Source: an uncultured delta proteobacterium
GTDB taxonomy: Bacteria > Desulfobacterota > WTBG01 > CAIYCZ01
Assembly: GCA_963803975.1 (NCBI GenBank)
Contig: CAWDOY010000009.1
Span: 32,001 to 96,000 of the forward strand
Reading direction: 5' to 3'
DNA: 64,000 nt
Position 1 is the stretch's first letter; the number at the start of each line of letters is the position of its first letter. Positions 23,539 to 42,686 of this stretch are shown here, in pieces. Below the pieces are notes generated by a model, which was not told the origin of the DNA, ran no database searches, and saw nothing but the letters and a program-made list of their open reading frames with translations. The position numbers and the translations under genes were made by a program.

Positions 23539-23956
23539 TTATGTTGAGCTTTCGTGAATCAATATTTCCGTCACGCCCTGCTTCACTATTCTGAATGCCC
23601 GCACCTCCGGCTGCTTCCTGTTTTTCAGGGAGATTATGAAATAGACCGCGTCAGGGTGAAAGGCAAGGCTGATGTCCATGCCCGAGGGGTCTGACAGGGC
23701 CTTTGGGGTGCGAGTGATAAATACCCAGCAGGCTCCCGCTCCCTTCCCCCAGTTCGGTGAATATTTCTACCTGCTCCTCAGGGGACATGAAATAGGAGTC
23801 AGGCGCGGGGTGGACGCTGGTGACGGGGATCACGCGCTCAAAAACACCCTGCTGCCCGATGAGCACCCCGCAGCATTCATTGGGAAGCTCCCGCCGGGCA
23901 TGCTCTATCATGGCGCTGAGCAAATGGGATGAAAGCGTTATTGCTGCATGTTCCAT
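23539..23956 (-). CDS. JAB/MPN+ (Mov34, M67) metallopeptidase; one indel near 23686
   Basis: PNECCGVL. Removing one base restores YHSHPKGPVRPSGMD (JAMM motif) and the tail AVYFIISLKNRKQPEVRAFRI...ESST* ending at 23539. Confidence 0.85.
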
Positions 23957-24042
23957 ATTTTCCCCCGGCAAAATAATTGACATATTTTGGGGACTGTGTT
24001 AACTTTGAAATCCTGATAAGGAAGAGAATTTTCAACACATAA

Positions 24043-24165
24043 CAGGCCTTCCGAGCTGCTTGTATACAGGCAGCCGATAAGGCTGAAGCAACCCTTCAGC
24101 CCGCCGTGTTTGCGAAGGAAGCCTGCAGGACATTGTCGAGGTGCATGTTCTGTCAGGCTTTTTTT
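24043..24165 (+). ncRNA. Moco/Wco-like riboswitch variant with intrinsic terminator (copy 1)
   Basis: CTTCCGAGC...GCCGATAAGG-stem-CCCGCCGTGTTTGCGAAGGAAG architecture; covaries with copy 2; terminator AAGCCTG...CAGGCTTTTTTT. Confidence 0.75.
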
Positions 24166-24286
24166 ATGCACGTATTGTATGTGAATTCCTTCCACATTTC
24201 AATTCTAATTGCAAGCATCAGTTTACGCATTATATATAACATAAGCGTACTGCAGATTAATATCCCAATCCACAGAGGAACCATGT

Positions 24287-24758
24287 ATGAAGGCTTTTAC
24301 GTTTAAACCGGAAAAATGCGATCTGTGCCGGAAGTGCGAGGAAGCGTGCGTTGCGGTCTGCGGCCCGGCTCAAGAAAAAGTCATCCGAATATGTCCCCCA
24401 CATACGGGTATTCCAGAGCCCGGAGGGCCCCTATATCAGGCTCTGCAGGCACTGCGAGGAACCGCCCTGTGTTGATGCCTGCATCGGGGAATCCCTGCAG
24501 CGGGGCCCGAACGGGCTGGTCATCCAGGACGAGGAGCGCTGCATCGGCTGCTTCATGTGCAACATGGTCTGCCCGCACGGCGCCATGAAAACCCTCATGA
24601 GCCAGGAAAAGGCGTTCAAGTGCACGCTTATGTGCGGCACCAAAACGCAGCCCACCTGCGTGCTTGCCTGTGACCGGGGAGCCCTGTTCTTTGAAGAGGT
24701 TTCCGCCCATAATAAAAACATCCGACGCGCCAAGCTTAAGGAGTTACCACGAAAATGA
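24287..24758 (+). CDS. 4x[4Fe-4S] ferredoxin-like subunit (DmsB/HycB type); frameshift near 24355
   Basis: CDLCRKCEEAC, CRHCEEPPCVDAC, CIGCFMCNMVCP and CTLMC..PTCVLAC across two frames. Confidence 0.88.
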
Positions 24759-26005
24759 AAACCAACGGCAGACAACACCTGATTATCGGCAATTGCATCG
24801 CGGCAGTTTCAGCTGCAGAAGTGCTGCGGAAGCAGAACCCCTCCGACACGATAACCATCATCGGTGATGAAGAGGTCCCCTCCTATTCCCGGTGCCTCAT
24901 TACCTATTATCTCGGGGACATGATAACCCGGAAGCACCTTTTGTCTCACAATGAGAAGTGGTATGCAGACCGGGACATTGACCTGCACCTCTCAACCAGG
25001 GCGCTCTCGGTCGACGCCAAAAAACATACGGTTATTGCCGAGCACAAGGGCAAAAAGAAAAAGTTCGAATATGACAAGCTGCTGGTTGCAACCGGCTCCA
25101 CCCCCATATTTCTTAAAAGCTTTCCCTATGATCCGGCCGGCATTATCGGCATGCGCAACTACCGCGATGCCGAGACCCTGAAGCGCTGGGCAAAGAAGGG
25201 AAAAAAGGCGATCATCATCGGTGCCGGGTTTGTCGGCTTGAAAACAGCCTACGGCCTTGCCAGGCAGGGCGTACAGGCAAAAGTGGTGGAGCTGCTGCCC
25301 ACCGTGCTGGGGCGCATGACCGATCTTGAGGCCAGCGCAAGGATTGTTGAGCGCCTCACCAGCCACAAGCTGATCGAGATTGAGCTCAACAACTCGGTCA
25401 CCGCCACCCGGAAGCAGGGGGACAAATACGTGGTCACCTATCAGAACGGCGCGGAAGAAGCGGCTGACTTTATCGTGGCCTCGGTCGGCGTTAAAGCCTG
25501 TGTCGAGTTTCTCGAAGGCACCGGCGCAGCATTAACGCGCGGGACCCTGCAGGTGAACGAGCGCCAGGAAACCACGGTTGCCGACATCTATGCTGCCGGT
25601 GATGTCTGTATATCTCCCCACATCATTTCCAGAGAATGGATCTATAACGCCATCTGGCCGGTTGCCGCTTCCCAGGGCCGGGTTGCCGCCTATAACATGT
25701 CAGGACAGCCGGCTGCCTATGCCGGCGATATCCCTATGAACAGCGTTGATTTTTTTGAGATGTGGATCACCGCCATCGGCAATGTCCAGGTCGAGGGTGC
25801 TGACATTGAGACGCTAAAATACATCAGCCCGCGCGTGTATCAGAAGGTGTTCATCCAGAAGGGAATCCCGATTGCCTTCATGGCGGTTGGCAATGTGGAC
25901 GGCGCCGGTCTCATCCGCGGCGCAATTGTCGCCGAGATGCCGTGGAAAGAGTTTGTAAAGAAGCCCCAGGCACGGGTGCTGCCAATAGCGGGGGAAGGAA
26001 TGTAA
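24755..26005 (+). CDS. FAD-dependent pyridine nucleotide-disulfide oxidoreductase (NirB/AOR gamma-subunit-like)
   Basis: YSRCLI, LLVATGS, IIGAGFVG, IYAAGD. Confidence 0.9.
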   Translation: MKTNGRQHLIIGNCIAAVSAAEVLRKQNPSDTITIIGDEEVPSYSRCLITYYLGDMITRKHLLSHNEKWYADRDIDLHLSTRALSVDAKKHTVIAEHKGKKKKFEYDKLLVATGSTPIFLKSFPYDPAGIIGMRNYRDAETLKRWAKKGKKAIIIGAGFVGLKTAYGLARQGVQAKVVELLPTVLGRMTDLEASARIVERLTSHKLIEIELNNSVTATRKQGDKYVVTYQNGAEEAADFIVASVGVKACVEFLEGTGAALTRGTLQVNERQETTVADIYAAGDVCISPHIISREWIYNAIWPVAASQGRVAAYNMSGQPAAYAGDIPMNSVDFFEMWITAIGNVQVEGADIETLKYISPRVYQKVFIQKGIPIAFMAVGNVDGAGLIRGAIVAEMPWKEFVKKPQARVLPIAGEGM

Positions 26006-26011
26006 ATAAAA

Positions 26012-26131
26012 ACCCTAATGTCAAAGCTCAAATGACAAATGAATGTCAAATCCTGAATTACCAATGAAACAGGGAGACCACCTTTGACATTTGGATTTCA
26101 TTTGGCATTGGGATTTTGAAATTTGACATTG
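26012..26131. repeat. Inverted array of degenerate heptamers (TGTCAAA / TTTGACA type)
   Basis: Left arm atgtcaaagctcaaatgacaaatgaatgtcaaa; right arm tttgacatttggatttcatttggcatt...tttgacatt. Confidence 0.75.
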
Positions 26132-26165
26132 TTTAGAATTCAGCTATTTAAATTTAGGATTTCTT

Positions 26166-27104
26166 ATGACCCAAAAAACCACCAGCTCTCCACAGAAGAA
26201 CATCCCCACTGCCCGCGTAAACGGCGTCATGATCAGCCAGTTCCAGCTGGAGTCAGGCGTTGAAGCGCTGCTGAAGCCATACGCGGATGTAAAGGGGAAA
26301 GTGCGCCTCCCCCAGGAGCAGCAGTACGCAGCGCGAAAAGCCGTGCTCGAAAACCTCATCATGCGGGAGCTTCTCTACCAGGAAGCATGCCGCAGGGGTA
26401 TCAAGGCTACGGACGAGGAAATAGAGAAAGTTATGGCTCTGGCAGTGGAAGAAGCCGGCTCCGAGAGGACCTTTAAGGCGATGATGGTGATGACCGGCTC
26501 AAGCCCTGAAGAGTACCGCAGCCAGATGATGAAAGATCTGGCGGTAAATAAAATGGCTGCCTCGGTGGTGGAGGGAAAGAAAAAACCGGTCACTGCGGAA
26601 GAGGCGCGCGCGTACTACGATGAGCATACGGCGGAAATGAGCGGCCCTGAGGCGCGCTGGCTCCTGCATATCATGCTGCCGCTTGATCAGTACGCCGCGG
26701 AGGCTGAAGAAAAAAAAGCGCGGGAGAAGCTCGAAAAGATACGCGCTGCAGGACCCGGCGGGTTTGCAAAAAGTCTGCGCACGCAGGGCGAGGACATGGG
26801 CTATGTCATGCGCGGCCAGCTGCACCCCATCCTTGATTCAGTAGTGTTCTCAACGCCGGCAGGCCAGATTACCCGGGTCATGCGGACCGAAGAGGGCCTG
26901 CATCTGATCCTGGTGAAAGAAGTATTGAAGGCGGGCGAGGTGCGGCCGTTCAATGCCGCCGTGGAAAAAGAGCTGCAGGAAAAGCTCTATGAAATGCGCT
27001 CAGTTGCAATGCTCCAGGAATTTACCGCAAAGCTGCACAAAAAAGCCGAGATAGAAATACTGGATACGTTTGTTGAAGCCCGGCTTGACATGGAGGAGAG
27101 CTGA
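26166..27104 (+). CDS. SurA-N/PpiC-type peptidyl-prolyl isomerase lacking a signal peptide
   Basis: ARVNGVMI, LENLIMRELLYQEA, HI, GEDMGY, RTEEGLHLI; hydrophilic N-terminus. Confidence 0.8.
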   Translation: MTQKTTSSPQKNIPTARVNGVMISQFQLESGVEALLKPYADVKGKVRLPQEQQYAARKAVLENLIMRELLYQEACRRGIKATDEEIEKVMALAVEEAGSERTFKAMMVMTGSSPEEYRSQMMKDLAVNKMAASVVEGKKKPVTAEEARAYYDEHTAEMSGPEARWLLHIMLPLDQYAAEAEEKKAREKLEKIRAAGPGGFAKSLRTQGEDMGYVMRGQLHPILDSVVFSTPAGQITRVMRTEEGLHLILVKEVLKAGEVRPFNAAVEKELQEKLYEMRSVAMLQEFTAKLHKKAEIEILDTFVEARLDMEES

Positions 27105-27405
27105 TATTTAATTGACCTCAATGTATCGGCTGGTGTATAGAGGAATAATTAACGGAAGGTACATTATGCCGAAAAATAACAATATTTTACTTCTAAAAAT
27201 ATGGGCCTCTATCAGCCTTCTCGCTGGTGGGGGCTTTTTATTTGTGGGTTTAGTTGGGACAAAATAATATGGGATGTCCCACATTTTTCTGAAGGTGCTG
27301 CCACATTTTCTCTCCCTTGAAATGCCTTGACACCCCACGCCCCCCAGCCTATATTTACTAAAGTACAGAGCGAACATTAACTCCCGAGTCCGGTGGAAAA
27401 TTGCG

Positions 27406-27600
27406 ATGCCGAAAAATGTTATAATGCGTACTCAGAAGAAAAAACCACCCGTACAGAACTCACAGTCGCACAGTGAAGACGGCATTGATCTTACGCTTAT
27501 CCGCTGGATGCTGTCTTTAACACCGGCCCAGAGGCTTCAGGTTTTGCAGCAGAATGTCAGCTCCCTTACGAGGCTGCGTAATGCAAAATACCACGTCTGA
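27406..27600 (+). CDS. Small antitoxin-like protein
   Basis: GIDLTLIRWMLSLTPAQRL; overlaps the next nucleotidyltransferase start. Confidence 0.7.
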   Translation: MPKNVIMRTQKKKPPVQNSQSHSEDGIDLTLIRWMLSLTPAQRLQVLQQNVSSLTRLRNAKYHV

Positions 27601-27706
27601 TTTTCTGGAAATCCTGCGTACGCTTTCTGAATATAAAGTCGATTTTATAGTGGTCGGAGGTGTGTGTGCCGTGCTTCACGGCGCTCCCATGACCACGTTT
27701 GATCTC
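27581..27706 (+). pseudogene. Truncated nucleotidyltransferase (same family as 22997-23521)
   Basis: MQNTTSDFLEILRTL...VVGGVCAVLHGAPMTTFDL; similarity then ends abruptly within the catalytic DxD motif. Confidence 0.75.
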
Positions 27707-27909
27707 CCGCTCCGCCGACAATTACCCCATCCAAAAGGGACTTTTTATCAATTATATTTACGAGGGTCTGATACCTATCAAGCACCAATATATCTATAAA
27801 AGTAAGGCACTTGGCCACGTTCTTTTCATGACGCAACCAATAAACTGAACGTACACAAACGTATCACTTCAAACTCAAAACATCAATTACAATAACGGAG
27901 GGAATAGAG

Positions 27910-29728
27910 ATGAGATATCCGTTTTGTACAAGGCTGAGTAAAAGTTTGACATGGCTGGCGTCATTGGTGATGACTGTTTGCTGGGCAGTCTCCGTAAATG
28001 CAATTTCCAATATGAAAAGAATGCAGTCTCTCATTTATTTTAATATCGTTATGGTTATGCTTTTAGTGATTTCAGGGTGTGAACCATACCCGGAGTGTGG
28101 ACCTGCTGATCTTGTAATCAAGAATGCGAAAGTTGTTACGGTTGATAAGGAAAATCCAGAAGCCGAGGCCGTCGCGTTTGTTGGAGAGTTTATTGTAGAT
28201 GTAACTTCCAACAGGAAAATTGCAAAGTACATTCAGGAAGGGAAGACGGAAGTTATTGATGCCGCAGGGAGGCTTGTCATACCCGGATTCAATGATGCTC
28301 ATGCGCATTTTTCATCCATTGACCTGGATTTCATTGACCTCAGGTATATTACCGAACCGAATATCATTACAGAGAAGGTGAGGGAAAAGGTAGCTGTATC
28401 CCAACCGGGAGAGCTGATCATGGGTGGTAACTGGGACCATGAGATGTTTCCCGATAAAAGGTGGCCAACCAAAGAGTTGATCGATCCTGTTTCTCCTGAC
28501 AACCCAGTGTTACTCTTCCGGACAGATTACCATTCGGTATTGGTTAACAGCTATGTATTAAGGAATTCGGGAATAACTAAGGATACACCCGATCCGGAGG
28601 GCGGAGAGATTCAGAGAGATAGCGTGACAGGAGAGCCTACAGGTATACTCAAGGAATCGGCAAAGGGGTTGATTAAAACCGGGGAAATACCGGTTGAAAG
28701 AACTCCTGAAGAGATTAAGCAACGCCTGATCGAAGGTTGGAAGGCAGCATTTAGAATGGCTGCTGAACTTGGTGTGACAAGTATTCAGCATCCGGGAGAG
28801 GGAGATGCTGAATTTTACCAGGAATGGTTTGACCAGGGAATGCTCACTTGCCGGATGGATGTTGCCGGTCGGCTTACTAACGATACAGACGCCCTGGAAA
28901 AATACGATGAGTTGAGAGAGAAATATCCACCCGAAGGAAACTGGATCCGGTTTGGATACCTGAAAGGGCAAATTGATGGGACACTGGGTTCAGCTACCTT
29001 TATGCTTTATGAACCGTTCATCGGATGACCCGGATAATACGGGTTTACCTCAGATGACCTATGAAGAGCTGGAACAGAAAGTGGTGACATGCGACAGTAT
29101 GGGATTCCAGATCGGAATACATGCCATTGGCGATAAGGCCAATACCTGGATCCTGAATGCTTTTGAAAAAGCAGCCGAGGTAAACGGCTGGAAGGATAGC
29201 CGGCACCGCAGTGAACACGCTCAGATCCTTATTGAAGAAGATATTCCCAGATTTGCGCAACTGGGTGTCATCGCTTCCATGCAACCCACACACTGCATAA
29301 CAGATAAACGGTTTTGTGAAAAACGGATTGGTAAGGAGCGATCTAAGTATGCATATGCCTGGAGGAGTTTATTGGATGCAGGTGCAAAGATTGCTTTTGG
29401 AACCGATTATCCTGTTGAACCACTGGATCCAATGGAAGGATTATATGCAGCCGTTACCCGCAAAGACCGTATGGGAGAGGAAGGTGATGGCTGGTTCCCG
29501 GAGCAGAAACTGACCATGGAAGAAGCCATTGAACTCTATACCCTTGGGGCGGCATATGCCCAATTCATGGAGAACAGGAAGGGCATGATCAAAAAGGGTT
29601 ATTTGGGGGATGTTGTTATTGTAAACCAGGATCTGATGACCATCCCTGAAGAAGATATTATGAAGACAAAAGTTGATTATACCATAGTTGGAGGTAAGGT
29701 GGTTTTTAAAAGGAACGACACCGACTGA
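27910..29728 (+). CDS. YtcJ-like amidohydrolase (Amidohydro_3), probable lipoprotein; frameshift near 29020
   Basis: IPGFNDAHAH, DGTLGS, IHAIGD, RHRSEHAQ, ASMQPTH, FGTDYPV. Confidence 0.9.
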
Positions 29729-29829
29729 CTGAAGGCGCGGTCCCGGGGTCAGGGCGGCGGCGGTCCCATCGACTCTCGCAACATAATGCCCCCTTTTATT
29801 ATATAAATATGAATTAACCGCTATCGGAT

Positions 29830-32245
29830 TTATTCGTAGTCCAGACTGGTAAAAATAGCATTGGCCAACACACGGAACATATTTTTCGGATGCGCCCCGA
29901 AGGTTGGCGAGATCCCCAAAAGCGTGATATTGCCCGGCCCGCTCTCGCTGTGAATGACTACCGGTTTTCCGCGGGCTCCGCTGCTGGACCATCCCGACCA
30001 GTACCCTGATACAAAAAAATTCTCGTCATCCTTTATATACATAGCAGAATTGACGCCATTGCCGAGGCTCGAAAACCAATACGGAGAATTCAGATAGGCA
30101 TAGTCCTCTGAAGGAAGGCCGGCCGTAATGGGGTCTTTCGGTGAATTGACCACTTTGACAATACCATCGCCATCGGCCCGGTTCAGGGCAAAGTCCAACA
30201 AGGAAGCATTGTCAGCAAAGTCAACCCCCCCGGCCATGCCGATAAAGTTGCCGCCGTTTTTCAAAAAGTTAACAATATTATCGTACCCGACCTCATCAAG
30301 CTCCCACCGCCATTCCACTCGCTCGAAAATCAGCAAATCAAAATCACCCAATATGGATGGCGCGGCGTTCAACTCCGCGGAGGTGACCTCTTGATAGGTA
30401 AAACCGAGTTCTCGCAGGCTAAAAGTGAGCCCTGATTCTGTGGAAGGGTAGACGGCGATTCGCTGCGGCTCCAGCTGAACGGCACTGTCTGGAATTTTCA
30501 TGAGGGCAAAAACATCCAGCCCATATTCCAGCGCCAGGCGGTTTGCCTCCGCATGGTCAGCCCTGAAGATAAACGCGCCCACTTCCAGCGGGCTTTCAGC
30601 GCCCGCGGCACCTTCCAGACGCGACACATCGGTTCCGGCTGCAATCAGGTCATTTGCAGCCCTGATCGCCTCGTTGCAGTTCGGCAAATACGCGTACCCG
30701 GTGCCGGACCAGCCCTGCACGGAACCGCGCAGAGGCCACTGCTTTCGCAGGCGGGCTGTTTTGACAGTGAGCGGCTTCTCAGCCACGGCCAGCCGTACCC
30801 CCCAGAGCAGCGGGTGGGACCATGCGGACGGTTTGGCGTAGAATGACAGTCCCTCAATAGCGGAAAGGTCCACGCCGCTGCTGAGAATCGTGTTTGCCAG
30901 TCCCCGCTTGGGCTGGTTCATCCATACCACGCAGGTTCCCTTGGGATAAGTAATATTATCGAGGGTAAAGGCATGCAGTGCTTTTTCCACCTGAATATCG
31001 TTGGCCAGCAAAAAGTCGATCAGCATATGAGGCTGATGTTCACTTTGCTGTAAGGGCGGCGACAGGGCAATCACATATGCTTCCGGAAACTCCTGAATCA
31101 TCAGGTCTTCAAATTGATCGTATGGTATCTGGTCCAGGATTTCCTGGCTGACAGGCTGCTGGGGAAGATCGAGAAATCCCCGGCGGAATATTTCGATCTG
31201 GTCCATAACCATTTCCTGCTTGTTTTTGACCGCGAACTTCAGAGCCCCCATAACCGCCGTCACCAGGACCTCTACATCGAGTTCGTCCCCCCCCATCCGC
31301 CCCCAGTAGGGGGGCTTCCAGTGTGTGGCCGTACGATCCGTGGTACATGGCATACTGGGGGCCGTAGATCGGCGGCCAATCATCCCACGCACCAGCCATG
31401 TCGAGAATAGGAATCATAGAGTCCATGCCCAGTTGTTCCTTCACCTCTGCTTTCATGGCCAGGGCCTGAGCAAGGGCCCATCCCAGGTAAAGGTCATACT
31501 CGTAGTTGGGGTTGTGGGGCGGCGTGCAAGGCTCGATCAGCAGGGTGGGCATAAACCCGTGCATGTCCAGAAGCACCAGGGGATTCCAGTCGGCCAGCAC
31601 GGCGACCAGGGCTTTTGTTTCAGGCTGAGACTGGGTGATAAAATCACGGTTGAGGTTAATCCCGTACCCATTCACCCTGGTGCCGTTCACCCTGCCGTCA
31701 GGGTTTTGAATCGGGTTAATCAGCAGGATGAAGTTTTCCAGGATTTCCAGCGTTTCTGCGGACTCGTCATAGGCGAAGTGCTCGATCAGCTCCATGCAGG
31801 CATCAACACCCGGGAGTTCATTGCCGTGCGTCCCCCCATTCACAAAAAACGGGAGCTTAAAATCATCCAGGCGCTCGATTGTATCCTGGGCCCTTTCCGG
31901 ATCATGGGTCATCAGGCGGCGAATCTGCCTGTAGTGTCCAAGCCGTCTCAGGCCGTCCGGGGAAGTGATCGTCACGAGGTATAAATCACGCCCGCCAGCA
32001 GACTGCCCCATGACCTCAACACGCACACGGAAGCTCTTTTTCTCGATCTCGCGGAGCTTGGGCCCGATTTCCGAGTAATCAATTGGATCATACGGGAGCG
32101 TTGCAGCACTTCGTGCAATTGAATTTGAATAGACACCTGAGACTGCCAGAGTGTCATTCGCTGCAAAGACGCTGGTGCATATTGTGGGGATCATTAGCAA
32201 AATAACTAAAAACAGATACATGTAAATATTATCCAACTTTTTCAT
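29830..32245 (-). CDS. Secreted M14 zinc carboxypeptidase with a C-terminal GATase-like domain; frameshift near 31290
   Basis: Signal peptide; HGNE, NPDG, NLNRD, DMHG; ORFs 32251-31109 and 31392-29830. Confidence 0.88.
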
Positions 32246-32513
32246 ACCCACACCTCCTGTTATGTGACTTTATAAAACTAAAAAACCGGAATTTATAGAG
32301 AACTTCCCTTTGGATGAAGAAGAAACGGGGTCTGGTCTTGGATTGTCAGCTATGCTGCGCTTCAACCTTTGTTATTATTTTGCTGACGGTAGTATAGTGA
32401 ATTTGCAGGGAGGTACCGGGGTCCTCTCATCCTCTCCTGCCTCGCAAGCCGCACCTTGCAGCAGGAAGATTCACCAACTAAAATTTATGCAATAATGCAA
32501 TACTAAAGGCAGC

Positions 32514-33248
32514 TTATACCTTGCCGCACACCGGGCAGTCGGGAATTTTTTTCTGCGGCAGTTCCATGAACTCCATGGCAGCGCCGTCCCAGATAAGCAT
32601 CCTTCCCATGAGATTCGTCCCCACACCGCTCAGGTATTTAATTGCTTCAAGTGCTTCGAGGCAGCCGATAACGCCGGCAGTTGCGCCGACAATGGGAAAC
32701 AGGGTCTTGGGCAGGGTGCCCGTGTGCATGCACCAGAGGCAGGGTGTTTCCGGAGGCTTGATGAAGGTGATCTGGCCCCGCATGCCGTACACGCCGGCGT
32801 GTATCATGGCAGTTTGGGTCCTGACCGCGTATTTGTTGAGTATCTGGCGGGTTTCAAAGTTATCAAGGCAGTCAACGATGAGATCAACCGTGCCGATGAC
32901 TGCCTCAGTATTCGCATCAGTTATTTCCTCAGCGACCGGCTCAACTTTTATTTCGGGATTGAGCCGTGTGAGTGTTTCCTGGGCAGAGAGCGCCTTGTTT
33001 TTGTTAATGCGGGAATCGTCGTGGAGTATCTGGCGGTTGAGGTTGGAAAGTTCCAGGGTGCCGCAGTCAGCGATGCGGATGGTGCCCACACCGGCAACAG
33101 CAAGATACATGGAGAGCGGGCTCCCCAAGCCTCCCGCACCGGCGATAAAAACTTTTGCGTTTTTTACGCGCTGCTGCGCTTCCTCTCCCCACCCGGGGAA
33201 TATCATCTGCCGCTGATAGCGGTTGCGTTCGCTCTCTGATAAGGGCAT
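32514..33248 (-). CDS. moeB: ThiF/MoeB/HesA-family E1-like adenylyltransferase
   Basis: RYQRQ, GAGGLG, SNLNRQ, DCLDNF, two CxxC motifs (CLWC, CPVC). Confidence 0.9.
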   Translation of the reverse strand: MPLSESERNRYQRQMIFPGWGEEAQQRVKNAKVFIAGAGGLGSPLSMYLAVAGVGTIRIADCGTLELSNLNRQILHDDSRINKNKALSAQETLTRLNPEIKVEPVAEEITDANTEAVIGTVDLIVDCLDNFETRQILNKYAVRTQTAMIHAGVYGMRGQITFIKPPETPCLWCMHTGTLPKTLFPIVGATAGVIGCLEALEAIKYLSGVGTNLMGRMLIWDGAAMEFMELPQKKIPDCPVCGKV

Positions 33249-33254
33249 ACGATA

Positions 33255-33358
33255 CGTTTCAAGTTTAAGGTTTAAAGCTTGAAGTTTAAAGTTTGCAGTT
33301 CAAGGTTTAAGGTTTAATTAATTGTATCTTTGAACCTGAAACATGCAACCCGAAACGT
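33255..33358. repeat. Inverted array of degenerate heptamers (GTTTAAG / CTTGAAC type)
   Basis: gtttcaagtttaaggtttaaagcttgaagtttaaagtttgcagttcaaggtttaaggttta facing ctttgaacctgaaacatgcaacccgaaac. Confidence 0.75.
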
Positions 33359-33671
33359 TAACCGTTCCCCCTCCAATAATCAGGCCGAACCACAACAGGT
33401 CACCATCTTTCAGCTTTGTCTTTAGCCCGTCGGGATAATCCAGCACCCACTGAATACGGCTTTTATTCAGATAGAGGTTGGGGGTCTTGTAGGGCTTGCC
33501 GTCAAGGATGCCCTCTGCGTAAACATGCTGGCCAAATTTAGCGCCATATTTTTTTATGACCTCTTCAATAAAGTCCTCTACCGTTGTTCCTGCCGTGATG
33601 GTAAAGGTCTCCTGTTCCTTATTGGTAATGCTCAGCACAGTGGTAAAATATTTACAGGTTACGGCGGGCAT
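33318..33671 (-). CDS. MoaD/ThiS ubiquitin-like sulfur carrier
   Basis: Beta-grasp pattern, GLKTKLKDGD...IIGGG; directly upstream of the E1 gene. Confidence 0.8.
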   Translation of the reverse strand: MPAVTCKYFTTVLSITNKEQETFTITAGTTVEDFIEEVIKKYGAKFGQHVYAEGILDGKPYKTPNLYLNKSRIQWVLDYPDGLKTKLKDGDLLWFGLIIGGGTVNVSGCMFQVQRYN

Positions 33672-33911
33672 TGTTTCTACCTCCCAGAATATAGATATAA
33701 ACGCAAGAGCGCATACTTATTATTATACACATTTTCTCTGCATGTCAATTGGCATGTAAGCAGAATGAGCGGTTACGGGAGCATCTCTGCCGGCCATTGA
33801 CACACATGCGGAAAACGCAGCAGAATATAACAAAACAAATTATTGACACGTATTTTTAGTTATGTTACTTGTGAATTCAGTCACTATATAGTATTAATAT
33901 TATATTATAAA

Positions 33912-34048
33912 TCTGGTCTTCCGAGCCGCTCACGCATAAGTAGGCGGCCGAAAAGGCTGAGGACAAAAACTTCAGCCCGCCGTGTTTGCGAAGGAAGCCT
34001 GAAGAGTACAGCTGCATTGTGCAGCTTACTTTTCAGGCTTTTTCTTTT
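33912..34048 (+). ncRNA. Moco/Wco-like riboswitch variant with intrinsic terminator (copy 2)
   Basis: Shares CTTCAGCCCGCCGTGTTTGCGAAGGAAGCCTG exactly with copy 1; compensatory stem changes; terminator AAGCCTGAAGAGTA...TACTTTTCAGGCTTTTT. Confidence 0.75.
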
Positions 34049-34181: not shown

Positions 34182-34682
34182 ATGAGTAACGGAAAAGCCC
34201 TGGTATACAACCAGGAAAAATGTACTGGATGCAGAAGCTGCGTCGTCGGCTGTTCTCTCTATCATGATGGCGAGTGCGGGAAAGTGGTTTCCCGGGTTGC
34301 CGTCGTGAGGAACGAGAGATTCGGAGAATCCTTTGTCGTCGGCTGCGACATGTGCACTGACGCGCCCTGCGCAGCAGTGTGCCCAACCGGCGCATGCGCC
34401 ATGGACACGGTCGCAGGCATCACCAAAATAAATGCCGATAAGTGCATCGGCTGCAAGGAATGCGCAATGGCCTGCCCCTTTGGTGTAATCAATATGCACT
34501 ATAAAACCGGAAAGGCTTTCAAGTGTGACCTCTGTGAAGGCCGTGATGCCGGTCCCGTTTGTGCTGACTGGTGCCCGAGCGGCGCAATAACCTATACAAG
34601 CCCCAATATTGCGTTCAAGGCCAAGCGCCGGGTAAAGCTTATGGAACGCTTAGAAGCTGCGAAAGCTGGAGAGGAGGGTTAA
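34182..34682 (+). CDS. 4x[4Fe-4S] ferredoxin-like subunit (AOR small subunit)
   Basis: CTGCRSCVVGC, CDMCTDAPCAAVCP, CIGCKECAMACP, CDLC..PVCADWCP. Confidence 0.93.
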   Translation: MSNGKALVYNQEKCTGCRSCVVGCSLYHDGECGKVVSRVAVVRNERFGESFVVGCDMCTDAPCAAVCPTGACAMDTVAGITKINADKCIGCKECAMACPFGVINMHYKTGKAFKCDLCEGRDAGPVCADWCPSGAITYTSPNIAFKAKRRVKLMERLEAAKAGEEG

Positions 34683-34686
34683 AACT

Positions 34687-36651
34687 ATGTATGGATGGGC
34701 TGGACAAAGACTACGCGTAGACCTTTCAACGGGAACAATAACCAAAGAGCCTCTCTCCTATGAGTATCGCCGCAAATGGATAGGCGGACGGGGCTTTAAC
34801 TCTGACATCATTTATAATGAAGTACCGGCGAACCTGGATCCGTTTGATCCTAAAGCGCGGGTGTGCTTTGGCGTGGGCCCGGTCAGCGGCACCGCTGCTC
34901 CTTCAACAGGACGCGTGACCGTTACCTGCAAGAGCCCGCTCACCGGCGGATTCGGTGACTCCAACATGGGCGGTCACTGGGGCGCAGAGCTGAAATATGC
35001 CGGCTATGATCAGATTGTCGTTCAGGGCCGGGCAAAACATCCGGTCTATATCTGGGTCGATGATGACAAGGTCGAGATCCGTGATGCACGCCACCTGTGG
35101 GGCAAATTCCCCCGCGAGGCAGACCAGATGATAAAAGAAGAGCTGGGCGACGAGGACATTCACATTGTGCTCATCGGGCCGGCCGGCGAAAACATGGTGC
35201 GGTTTGCCTGCACCTTTAACGATGTGTGGCGCGCTGCAGGAAGAACCGGACACGGCGGCGTCATCGGCTCCAAGAACCTGAAGGGCATTGCGGTCCGTGG
35301 TTCCGGCACCGTTAAAATTGCCAATCCCAAAGCCATGATGGATGTCTGCAACCGGCTGAGACAGACTTTTAAGCCCGACCCCATGAAGATCGGTCTCTAT
35401 GAGTTCGGCAGCCTGTGCCTCATTAACGTTGCCAACCGCGACGGCTGGTTCCCCTGGAGAAATTTTCAGGGCGGCGCACACCCGCTGGCAAACAACATGT
35501 CAGGCGAGACCCATGCCAAGACCGTGCTCAAGCACCGTGAAGGCTGCTTTGCCTGCCCGATCTGCTGCGGCCGATTCACCCACATTAAAGAAGGCAAATG
35601 GGCCGGTGAAGAGTTCGGCGGACCTGAATATGAACATGCAGTTCCGACCGGACCGCGCGTTGGCATAATTGAAGATGCCAATGATATCTGGCACAATGCC
35701 CGCTTAACCAACGACTACGGCATGGACGGTATCGAGACCGGCGGTGTAATATCAGCGGCAATGGAATGGTATGAAAAGGGCCTCATCACCACCAAAGAGA
35801 CCGGCGGACTGGAGCTTGAGTGGGGCAACGCGGAAGTCGTGGATAAGCTTATCCCCATGATTGCAACACGCAAGGGCTTCGGCGCAATCCTCGCCGAAGG
35901 CGCTGACCGGGCTTCTGACAAACTGGGACTCGGTGATAAAGGACACTATTATACCCTCACCACCCGCGGCATGACGCTGCCGGGCGATGACCCGCGCGGC
36001 CTTGGTTTCGGCTACGGGCTCTCTTTTGCAATGGGCACCCGCGGCGGCTGCGACCATCTCCGGTCACTGTGCTGCCTCGAGCTCTCCGGCGCCCTTTATC
36101 CGGGCCTCAACACCAAGATTCTCGGTGATGAGCGGCCCAATAAGCCGGTCACCACGGTAGGAAAACCCTACATGGTCTTCTATGAAGAGAACCAGAAAGC
36201 GACCACAGATTGTCTGCAGGTCTGCTGCTTCACCACCCACTGGTCATATGCGGTTCTCACGCCTGACCAGGTGGAATACCTGAATGCCGTTACCGGGCTT
36301 GACTTCACCGAGGAAGAGTTCCAGGAAATCGGCGAGCGCGTCTACAACCTGGAACGCGCCTACTGGGCACGCCAGATGTCCGGCGCCCGGGAAGACGTTG
36401 TGCCGGAGCGGTTTACCACTGAGCCGATGCCCCAGGGCGTTGACTATCAGACCAATGTCGGCGTTGTGTTCCCCTTAAGCGAAATGCTGAAAAAGTACTA
36501 CAAGTATCGTGAGTATGAGCCCGGAACAGGATTCCCCGGCGAGCGGAAGCTGAAACAGCTCGGCCTTGACTACGTGGCAAAGGATCTTGCCCCGCTGCGC
36601 AGCAAGTACCTGTCTGAGTCTGAGAAGAAAAAGAAAAAATACTACTATTAA
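34687..36651 (+). CDS. aor: Aldehyde:ferredoxin oxidoreductase family (tungsten, AOR/WOR) catalytic subunit
   Basis: KSPLTG, SNMGG, IGPAGEN, AAGRTG.G...GSKNLK, CFACPICC, GPEYE, DPRG. Confidence 0.93.
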   Translation: MYGWAGQRLRVDLSTGTITKEPLSYEYRRKWIGGRGFNSDIIYNEVPANLDPFDPKARVCFGVGPVSGTAAPSTGRVTVTCKSPLTGGFGDSNMGGHWGAELKYAGYDQIVVQGRAKHPVYIWVDDDKVEIRDARHLWGKFPREADQMIKEELGDEDIHIVLIGPAGENMVRFACTFNDVWRAAGRTGHGGVIGSKNLKGIAVRGSGTVKIANPKAMMDVCNRLRQTFKPDPMKIGLYEFGSLCLINVANRDGWFPWRNFQGGAHPLANNMSGETHAKTVLKHREGCFACPICCGRFTHIKEGKWAGEEFGGPEYEHAVPTGPRVGIIEDANDIWHNARLTNDYGMDGIETGGVISAAMEWYEKGLITTKETGGLELEWGNAEVVDKLIPMIATRKGFGAILAEGADRASDKLGLGDKGHYYTLTTRGMTLPGDDPRGLGFGYGLSFAMGTRGGCDHLRSLCCLELSGALYPGLNTKILGDERPNKPVTTVGKPYMVFYEENQKATTDCLQVCCFTTHWSYAVLTPDQVEYLNAVTGLDFTEEEFQEIGERVYNLERAYWARQMSGAREDVVPERFTTEPMPQGVDYQTNVGVVFPLSEMLKKYYKYREYEPGTGFPGERKLKQLGLDYVAKDLAPLRSKYLSESEKKKKKYYY

Positions 36652-42191: not shown

Positions 42192-42454
42192 GGTTCTTTC
42201 CTTTCGATCAAAAATAGTTACCTTCAGGGATTAATTTATTTATTATTTCTAATGGCACAATAAAGCCGGCTTCTCAGCATACCTCCTTTCAATCTCTATT
42301 GCTTCCATTTTTTAGTGTTTTTATACCCGTGGAAAAGTCTGTTTTGTATGAGGTATTACTATATCATGAGATTGAAAGTTGTTCAATTATTTTAAAGCAT
42401 TATTTTAAAGTTCTTAACTTGACACGACACAGCAATTCAGATATTCTTTTTTAC

Positions 42455-42615
42455 AGCCAGGTAACCCGCACGGGTTTTAATAGGGAAGATGGTGCGACTC
42501 CATCGCGGACCCGCCGCTGTAACCGGGGACGAAAGCCATGAGAAAGCCACTGTGCCGTATAGCGGCACGGGAAGGAATGGCGAGTAGACTGATCCGGAAG
42601 CCAGAAGACCTGCCG
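42455..42615 (+). ncRNA. Cobalamin riboswitch
   Basis: AGGT...AATAGGGAAGATGGTGCGACTCCATCGCGGACCCGCCGCTGTAA...GCCACTG...GGGAAGG...AAGCCAGAAGACCTGCC (B12 box). Confidence 0.95.
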
Positions 42616-42686
42616 GCAGCACAGAGACCGCTATCCGTCGTGGAACACGGGCAGCTTTCAATGCACACATCAGGATGAAAAACGGC

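Follow-up and report, generated by a model that had tools for sequence, protein, structure and literature searches.

Two leaders within a 64,000-nt stretch of the genome of an uncultured delta proteobacterium (GCA_963803975.1, contig CAWDOY010000009.1, positions 32,001–96,000; hereafter the window) are real RNAs, missed by annotation, that belong to a recurring subtype of the Moco/Wco riboswitch family. The favored reading, to which we assign a probability of about 0.5, is that free tungsten-pterin cofactor stabilizes helix P1 of these RNAs, blocks the terminator and turns on the tungstoenzyme genes downstream. The family, its group lacking helix P3 and four members of the subtype in a 2008 alignment were already known; the separation of the subtype by an inverted base pair in helix P5 and its proposed ON layout appear to be new. 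The two aptamers and their terminators are located as follows.

24043–24125, plus strand: copy 1 aptamer (sequence, folding, 28.8 bits with the Rfam model RF01055); P1 at 24048–52/24117–21 with an extension at 24043–46/24122–25, P2 at 24055–74, P4 at 24081–101, P5 formed by G24103-C24113 and C24104-G24112, no P3
24119–24165, plus strand: copy 1 intrinsic terminator, whose 5' arm coincides with the 3' end of P1; stem from G24121-C24158, then seven U
33912–34001, plus strand: copy 2 aptamer (sequence, folding, 31.1 bits with RF01055); P1 at 33918–22/33993–97 with an extension at 33915–16/33998–99, P2 at 33925–48, P4 at 33955–77, P5 at 33979–89, no P3
33995–34048, plus strand: copy 2 intrinsic terminator; overlaps P1, stem from G33997-C34038, then a U-rich tail

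The leaders share CTTCCGAGC (at 24048 and 33918), GCCGA.AAGGCTGA (at 24073 and 33947) and an identical 32-mer (at 24094 and 33970), all where the preliminary description of this DNA had placed them; by chance, 64 kb of sequence should hold about 4e-10 such repeats. When the genome was searched fuzzily with the 3' core, these two were the only real copies. In the predicted fold of each, P1 closes the P2 and P4 hairpins and a two-pair P5, and a U-tailed hairpin follows. The multistem junction of P1, P2, P4 and P5 is present in both copies with its conserved junction bases, and a 6-nt linker joins P2 to P4, in agreement with the proposed absence of P3, the mark of the Wco/Tuco subgroup.

The assignment to the Moco/Wco family, also made in that description, is borne out by covariance searches. 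In 150-nt pieces both copies match RF01055 over its full length (positions 1–135; E 2.5e-4 for copy 1 and 5.2e-5 for copy 2) below the gathering cut-off of 36 bits; the match is thus weak but not partial. Nine of eleven 150-nt pieces from this genome and its relatives match the model, none of them above the cut-off. Rfam scans of the whole window, of 10.5 kb and of the whole genome missed both copies because of a filter effect of the larger scans, and it was the 150-nt pieces that revealed the match. Our own covariance model R1, trained on both copies, scores them at 62.4 and 60.4 bits. The first P5 pair is G-C in both, against C-G in the RF01055 consensus, whose P5 consists of two pairs (C-G and C-G). 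The GNRA tetraloop on P4 and the 11-nt receptor in P2 are absent; the P4 loop region of copy 1 retains the letters GCAA, yet its predicted fold has a 5-nt loop. Since they resemble a P3-less Moco/Wco riboswitch but fail the cut-off, the receptor and the P5 consensus, the copies are best filed as a variant.

The stem covariation claimed between the two copies stands for P2, which shows a true double change (U-A/C-G), and falls for P4, in which the change is one-sided (A-U/G-U) and hence compatible rather than compensatory. Covariation was also found among homologues. Nine of 61 related genomes, counting this one, have the core, in 11 matches that are all complete RNAs. Across 15 close homologues, which are kin, five of six P2 pairs and four of seven P4 pairs change on both sides, a score reached by none of 500 shuffles, and the junction bases are invariant. 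The exact 32-mer common to both copies could in principle reflect chance or a duplicated intergenic repeat without regulatory role. This extremely improbable explanation is ruled out by complete homologues in many genomes, the RF01055 matches, the covarying stems and a consistent gene context.

The wider subtype was collected by scanning species genomes for the core pattern, which gave at least 119 loci (39 of 119 with short flanks only). From the 131 pattern matches listed, 96 were kept and 35 dropped as chance under a two-hairpin rule; five loci were retained by hand and duplicate aptamers were merged. Members were chosen by P5 sequence or model score, never by terminator or gene. The comparison set comprises 125 other RF01055 matches from this genome, 35 subtype-bearing genomes and 21 genomes of the order. 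Both sets include kin, so the counts are not independent observations. A metagenome scan with a loose pattern found 120 loci, of which 80 were scored and three were strong matches; these are left out of all counts. Subtype hosts belong to Desulfobacterota, Chloroflexota (including Anaerolineae), Bacillota and Caldisericota (Caldisericaceae); deltaproteobacteria and, among Clostridia, Eubacterium barkeri and E. aggregans are represented.

In these sequences the flip of the first P5 pair from C-G to G-C defines the subtype and marks an aptamer type. The preliminary description had proposed a compensatory swap of three pairs in this last stem, which the pair tallies exclude: the first pair alone flips, and the outer pair drawn there persists in only 6 of the 15 close homologues and over 95 parsed members is U-A in 52, C.A in 31, C-G in nine, U.G in two and A.A in one. 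The base after P4 tracks the base before it (n = 95; G.U 52, A.C 35, C.C 5, A-U 2, A.A 1); because G.U and A.C wobbles are alike in shape, these flanking bases may form a non-canonical pair. Loss of the receptor, claimed for the two copies, extends to the subtype, a loose 11-nt receptor pattern being found in 15 of 95 members against 120 of 125 other RF01055 matches. The loss of the GNRA loop cannot be generalized to the class: a GNRA-like loop is kept by 76 of 95 members (GCAA in 40, GUAA in 14) and was lost mainly in the subclade of the window (n = 15), with its short P2 and P4 and variable loops. When 20 short loci from the wider subtype were scanned with RF01055, 16 matches passed the cut-off and four lay below it, with one locus giving none.

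The window copies thus share with the P3-less Tuco/Wco group of RF01055 the P1-P2-P4-P5 junction, the conserved junction bases and a pterin-cofactor gene context. They differ from it in the first P5 pair, the missing receptor and a terminator overlapping P1 and, at the level of their subclade, in short P2 and P4, a mostly absent GNRA loop and A.C or G.U instead of a Watson-Crick pair below P4. This genome (4.25 Mb) carries ten ordinary RF01055 RNAs (60–79 bits) and three subtype RNAs, all three of which were missed by the whole-genome RF01055 search. The third copy, L318 (G000:C33:23795-23887, minus strand), precedes FdhE-like and formate dehydrogenase (FDH) genes. A further P5 type, with a U-A pair, was seen in clostridial RNAs before transporters (L160, L173, L214); the tup, fet and focA RNAs of Eubacterium limosum are of this U-A type (PMC11725836).

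Members of the subtype can be recognized in earlier work. The P3-less group was defined by Regulski et al. (2008, PMC2408646), who tested only Escherichia coli moaA, an OFF switch, and noted that the GNRA-receptor pairing is usual, not universal, in Moco RNAs. They also pointed out four RNAs with GCAA loops but no receptor, the alignment rows Mth-1-1, Dre-1-1, Tth-1-1 and Tth-2-1, which have the same P5 flip; unlike the window copies, they keep the GCAA loop. Mth-1-1 (Moorella) precedes HybA-AOR-MoaD-NirB, where AOR stands for aldehyde:ferredoxin oxidoreductase, Dre-1-1 precedes AOR and the Thermus RNA Tth-1-1 precedes ModA; in our reading of the alignment, Mth-1-1 and Dre-1-1 have a U-tailed hairpin that starts inside P1. 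The available part of that paper describes OFF control only, does not separate the subtype, and remarks on the loop-receptor correlation without a class or ON logic. The E. limosum wor1 "Tuco" riboswitch, which precedes a tungsten AOR operon and was modelled in 2024 as a translational OFF switch (PMC11725836), is of the same subtype as the window copies (G-C flip, GCAA loop, no receptor). Its alignment shows, in our own reading of a feature not discussed in the available text, a conserved hairpin with its start inside P1 and a weak U-tail. The supplement of the same paper lists Moorella and Faecalicatena WOR1 RNAs as "transcriptional", no direction being found in the available passages. The available parts of six other papers (PMC9971707, PMC9481103, PMC3766115, PMC12121620, PMC12318220, PMC5651825) name the Moco and Wco classes without such a split, and in the literature covered, mostly open-access papers, neither the subtype as a class nor ON control was found described.

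ON-type wiring, as proposed in the preliminary description, agrees with the position of the terminators. A terminator counted as overlapping when its start fell among the first six bases on the 3' strand of P1; one strict rule was applied to both sets, and the clear overlapping hairpins that it overlooks (e.g., L014, L018, L300) were left as called. By this rule, 70 of the 97 subtype RNAs carry a P1-overlapping terminator and five a separate one, 21 yielded no call and one was too short; among the 125 other matches one overlaps, 95 are separate and 29 have none. Among 82 matches picked by Rfam score alone, all six new subtype copies overlap, and no RNA of the other type does. In a second search, a model built from 44 subtype RNAs was run over 151 genomes of the phylum and 51 matches were examined. 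Of the 19 that are subtype RNAs by pattern, some duplicating the first set, 15 overlap, one has a separate terminator and three have none; the 32 others comprise 16 separate, 14 none and two overlapping, one of the latter a subtype RNA by eye. A run of at least five bases complementary to P5, which would act as an antiterminator, occurs in 24 of 43 canonical copies against 8 of 65 overlapping subtype copies, and a separate terminator with such a run would constitute an OFF layout. Among Chloroflexota, many members have a terminator that consumes the P1 strand entirely (30 of 92 start at position 0), and overlaps with terminators of unrelated sequence are found in several phyla. Tandem subtype RNAs (L137, L288/L315, L289/L316) were seen before AOR genes, each with its own overlapping terminator; a sharpened ON response is possible there.

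Folding reproduces the displacement at both window copies. P1 has a probability of 0.76–0.93 in partial transcripts and of about 0 once the terminator is complete; no fold holding P1 together with the complete terminator was found for either copy, and aptamer helix and terminator are thus mutually exclusive, by computation only. Forcing P1 costs 10.8 (copy 1) and 8.7 (copy 2) kcal/mol relative to the terminator fold. The 3' strand of P1 had been described as the 5' arm of the terminator; the overlap is real, but outside the U-tract the terminator stem begins only at the fifth base of that strand. The clash for this reason depends on the fifth-base pair and on the P1 extension, in which the adjoining G is paired in 14 and the preceding G in 11 of the 15 close homologues. 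In L318, P1 pairs that are invariant elsewhere differ in both strands, and the overlapping hairpin, whose U-tail is weak, has changed with them.

These results bear on the distinctly unlikely alternative that the RNAs repress, as published for E. limosum wor1 (PMC11725836), or are ligand-independent attenuators with a decaying aptamer. One subtype member does have a published OFF model, the window copies are without the tetraloop-receptor brace and below the family cut-off, and the terminator fold dominates at equilibrium. Decay is, however, at odds with invariant junction bases and covarying stems in 15 homologues, and both versions are at odds with the mutual exclusion of P1 and complete terminator, with an overlap kept in several phyla despite unrelated terminator sequences, and with the concerted changes of P1 and terminator arm in L318.

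Under the favored ON reading, P1, P2, P4 and P5 would form a four-way junction while the leader is transcribed, as folding predicts. Without ligand, the finished terminator would capture the P1 3' strand and its extension, and transcription would stop. Ligand would stabilize P1, the base of the terminator could not close beside the U-tract, and the polymerase would read on; this step is modelled on E. coli moaA, in which the ribosome site lies in P1 and the cofactor represses (PMC2408646). Judged by gene context, the ligand would be tungsten-loaded pyranopterin, the part common to the cofactors of AOR-family enzymes and formate dehydrogenases. Copy 2 would control a ferredoxin and a catalytic subunit, and copy 1 a ferredoxin and an NAD-linking flavoprotein. 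An ON switch in which P1 competes directly with the terminator, and ligand activates by terminator disruption, was reportedly described by Mandal and Breaker in 2004 for the adenine riboswitch; its aptamer and ligand are unrelated to the Moco family, and its mechanism is said to be experimentally proven.

The genes behind the RNAs point to the cofactor. Copy 2 lies in the 5' leader of an AOR operon and copy 1 in that of pterin-free partner subunits. The tally of downstream genes foreseen in the preliminary description, with labels assigned by hand, covers 70 subtype RNAs with downstream DNA: 57 precede AOR operons, two ferredoxin plus AorC-like genes, one a tungsten radical-SAM maturase-like gene, four TupA/WtpA-like genes, one Fe-ADH, one TctC and four unassigned genes. 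Among the matches listed, moaA/moeA or xanthine-oxidase-family genes stand behind 0 of these 70. The 125 RNAs of the other type precede moaA/moeA (24), xanthine-oxidase-family (22), porin (14), ModA-like (11), other ABC/ECF (9), TupA-like (8), AOR (7), FDH (1) and unassigned (29) genes. The model search yielded 20 subtype RNAs, some already counted, with 12 before AOR, six (among them L318) before formate dehydrogenase-N-type operons and two before other genes. An association with tungsten genes, typical of Wco/Tuco RNAs, is thus present, the metal of the enzymes being assigned by family. AOR, FDH and tungstate transporters have the cofactor in common and no shared substrate, and the ligand is on that account read as cofactor-linked; gene context further suggests an altered ligand specificity of the subtype. 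Several subtype RNAs precede genes without an obvious tungsten link (L306, L312, L093, L233, L228, L232, L037, L054; WD40, DsbA-like, TctC, Fe-ADH or unassigned) and are possible leads to new tungsten biology.

Two alternatives concern the effector. It could be a metal-blind ligand, molybdopterin or Mo- or W-loaded pterin, acting through the same ON wiring, with the P5 flip and receptor loss marking an ON-wired lineage instead of a changed specificity. We consider this rather unlikely. Most junction bases are common to the subtype and the canonical type, the canonical P3-less type precedes Mo and W genes alike, and E. limosum wor1 mRNA stayed flat under W limitation in a normally Mo-containing medium (PMC11725836). 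Yet the gene sets differ sharply, with the xanthine-oxidase family and moaA/moeA behind no subtype RNA against 22 and 24 of the other type, the transporters behind the subtype are TupA- or WtpA-like, and the E. coli moaA RNA is reported to discriminate against W, so the fold can tell metals apart. Alternatively, the conserved fold could be an antiterminator stabilized by a protein, such as a cofactor-binding or maturation factor, or by an aldehyde- or redox-linked metabolite, which is unlikely as well. A 5–6.5-fold rise of wor1 on lactate, with about sixfold more acetaldehyde and regardless of W limitation, is in its favor, as are the few subtype RNAs before Fe-ADH, TctC, WD40 or DsbA-like genes; a protein factor was not excluded for the Moco family (Regulski et al., 2008, PMC2408646). 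But the subtype heads two unrelated enzyme families and tungstate transporters that share the cofactor only, and the lactate response was ascribed by its authors to a CcpA site (PMC11725836).

Before tungstate transporters the same aptamer subtype is a predicted OFF switch, which would give feed-forward on enzymes and feedback on uptake. Subtype RNAs before Tup-like transporters have no overlapping terminator, and their ribosome site is predicted to be hidden when P1 forms: forcing P1 lowers its accessibility in four transporter-type leaders (0.55 to 0.01, 1.0 to 0.02, 0.71 to 0.16 and 0.79 to 0.41, the fourth with no gene assigned). ON or OFF would accordingly follow the role of the downstream gene, with the G-C flip marking the aptamer type. 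A broader proposal, advanced tentatively, is that the G-C-flipped receptor-less subtype forms a distinct tungsten-selective class inside RF01055, in which the P5 flip and not the absence of P3 is the true marker of selectivity, AOR and FDH are turned on and tungstate uptake off, and the window copies, at 75–85 nt, represent the minimal core; ordinary P3-less RNAs of the same genomes would then be generalist or Mo-linked OFF switches.

Several observations weigh against the favored reading, the strongest being the null response of wor1. Under W limitation its mRNA was steady (wor1S 2699 vs 3158, wor1L 10923 vs 12106) and stayed within 1.2-fold while activity dropped (<10%), and this subtype member was modelled as a translational OFF switch (PMC11725836). 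This evidence is softened by the about 6 nM W that remained, the Mo in the standard medium and a tupABC mRNA that was also unresponsive (PMC11725836), and by the weak U-tail of the hairpin that we read in the wor1 alignment. Regulski et al. (2008, PMC2408646) were unable to demonstrate direct binding for the family, according to the available text, and no published demonstration of selective tungsten-cofactor binding was found for any Wco/Tuco member in the available parts of the papers. At the window copies, the gap of 9–11 kcal/mol indicates that switching would have to be kinetic, and outside the U-tract the overlap in their subclade spans only 3–5 bases and depends on the P1 extension. Under the strict rule 21 of 97 subtype RNAs are without a terminator. 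Tungsten genes are not exclusive to the subtype, since RNAs with the ordinary P5 also stand before AOR (7 of 125), FDH (1) and TupA-like (8) genes, and of about 20 AOR-family loci in this genome only one carries a subtype RNA. Among the transporter-type leaders, accessibility at L167 (WtpA) barely shifts with P1 forced (0.44 to 0.33), and L132 yielded no ribosome site. As a separate observation on PMC11725836, its Table S4 gives one iron-transporter permease as 273 vs 127, lower without W, whereas the text says that fetABC1 rose under W limitation; the column labels of this table may be swapped.

The window genes adjoining the two RNAs are listed below, together with a candidate promoter.

23651–23983, minus strand: JAB-domain protein, divergent, adjoins copy 1
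23977–24005, plus strand: candidate copy 1 promoter (TTGACA, 17-nt spacing, weak -10 box), read by eye
24287–24758, plus strand: polyferredoxin, probably AorA-like, copy 1 operon; intact homologue at L011
24755–26005, plus strand: FAD/NAD flavoprotein; best solved relative chain E (AorC subunit) of the Aromatoleum tungsten AOR 8c0z, E 8e-42
32514–33248, minus strand: MoeB/ThiF adenylyltransferase, divergent, near copy 2
33318–33671, minus strand: MoaD-family sulfur carrier, divergent, adjoins copy 2
34182–34682, plus strand: polyferredoxin, probably AorA/WorS-like, copy 2 operon
34687–36651, plus strand: large subunit of the AOR family (AFOR_N, AFOR_C); Pyrococcus AOR 1aor is the best solved relative, E 1e-134

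In the tungsten AOR of Aromatoleum, electrons reach NAD through AorC, the third subunit (PMC12096430). The copy 1 and copy 2 operons probably encode halves of one AorABC-type complex, and the JAB, MoeB/ThiF and MoaD-family genes beside them form a sulfur-carrier set that may serve pterin synthesis. The copy 1 polyferredoxin has an extra base near 24370 in the assembly that contigs from four of four runs lack, and its frameshift probably stems from an assembly error. Compared with other runs, single-base indels at 24370, 29025, 31286–31299 and 27889, affecting the split ferredoxin, an amidohydrolase (27910–29728) and a peptidase M14 region, are likely of the same origin. The promoter scanner run on the window listed neither of the promoters read by eye, and the scanner's simple terminator rule picked up only the top of the copy 2 hairpin. 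An Rfam scan found a cobalamin riboswitch at 42441–42631 (113 bits). At 26017–26051 many unrelated contigs match only a short intergenic stretch, a small repeated element.

Some observations concern the ordinary type. Ordinary-type RNAs before an AOR subfamily (L006, L189, L207, L217, L242, L243, L251) are without a terminator, and some of them have a P5-complementary run just 5' of the ribosome site. They are possible translational ON switches, for which folding gives a mixed picture: with P1 forced, accessibility rises in four of six and barely changes in two (L006 was mis-parsed). Ordinary P3-less RNAs with separate, OFF-type terminators stand before xanthine-oxidase-family operons in 16 of 22 such cases. 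At G000:C57:14480-14795 (L007, L008, L341) they lie in tandem before such an operon, followed by CoxE- and XdhC-like genes. At G012:C154:45388-46074 (L241, L013) a tandem pair of ordinary RNAs before a xanthine-oxidase-family gene adjoins, back to back, a subtype RNA that precedes AOR. A pterin OFF switch on a Mo enzyme may reflect repression by W cofactor or serve in scavenging.

The ligand of the "Wco" riboswitch has been assigned from gene context. The subtype makes both the tungsten-sensing claim and the question of how an RNA distinguishes tungsten and molybdenum directly testable, offering a small aptamer, a gain-of-signal readout, natural ON and OFF pairs from the same genomes, and hosts already in culture (Moorella, Eubacterium). 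Standard annotation overlooks its members, as it did all three copies of this genome. The ON reading calls into question the OFF model published for E. limosum wor1. If it is true, costly iron-sulfur tungstoenzymes would be made only when the cofactor is at hand, with a bearing on the physiology of acetogens and gut microbes and on the production of AOR and FDH biocatalysts.

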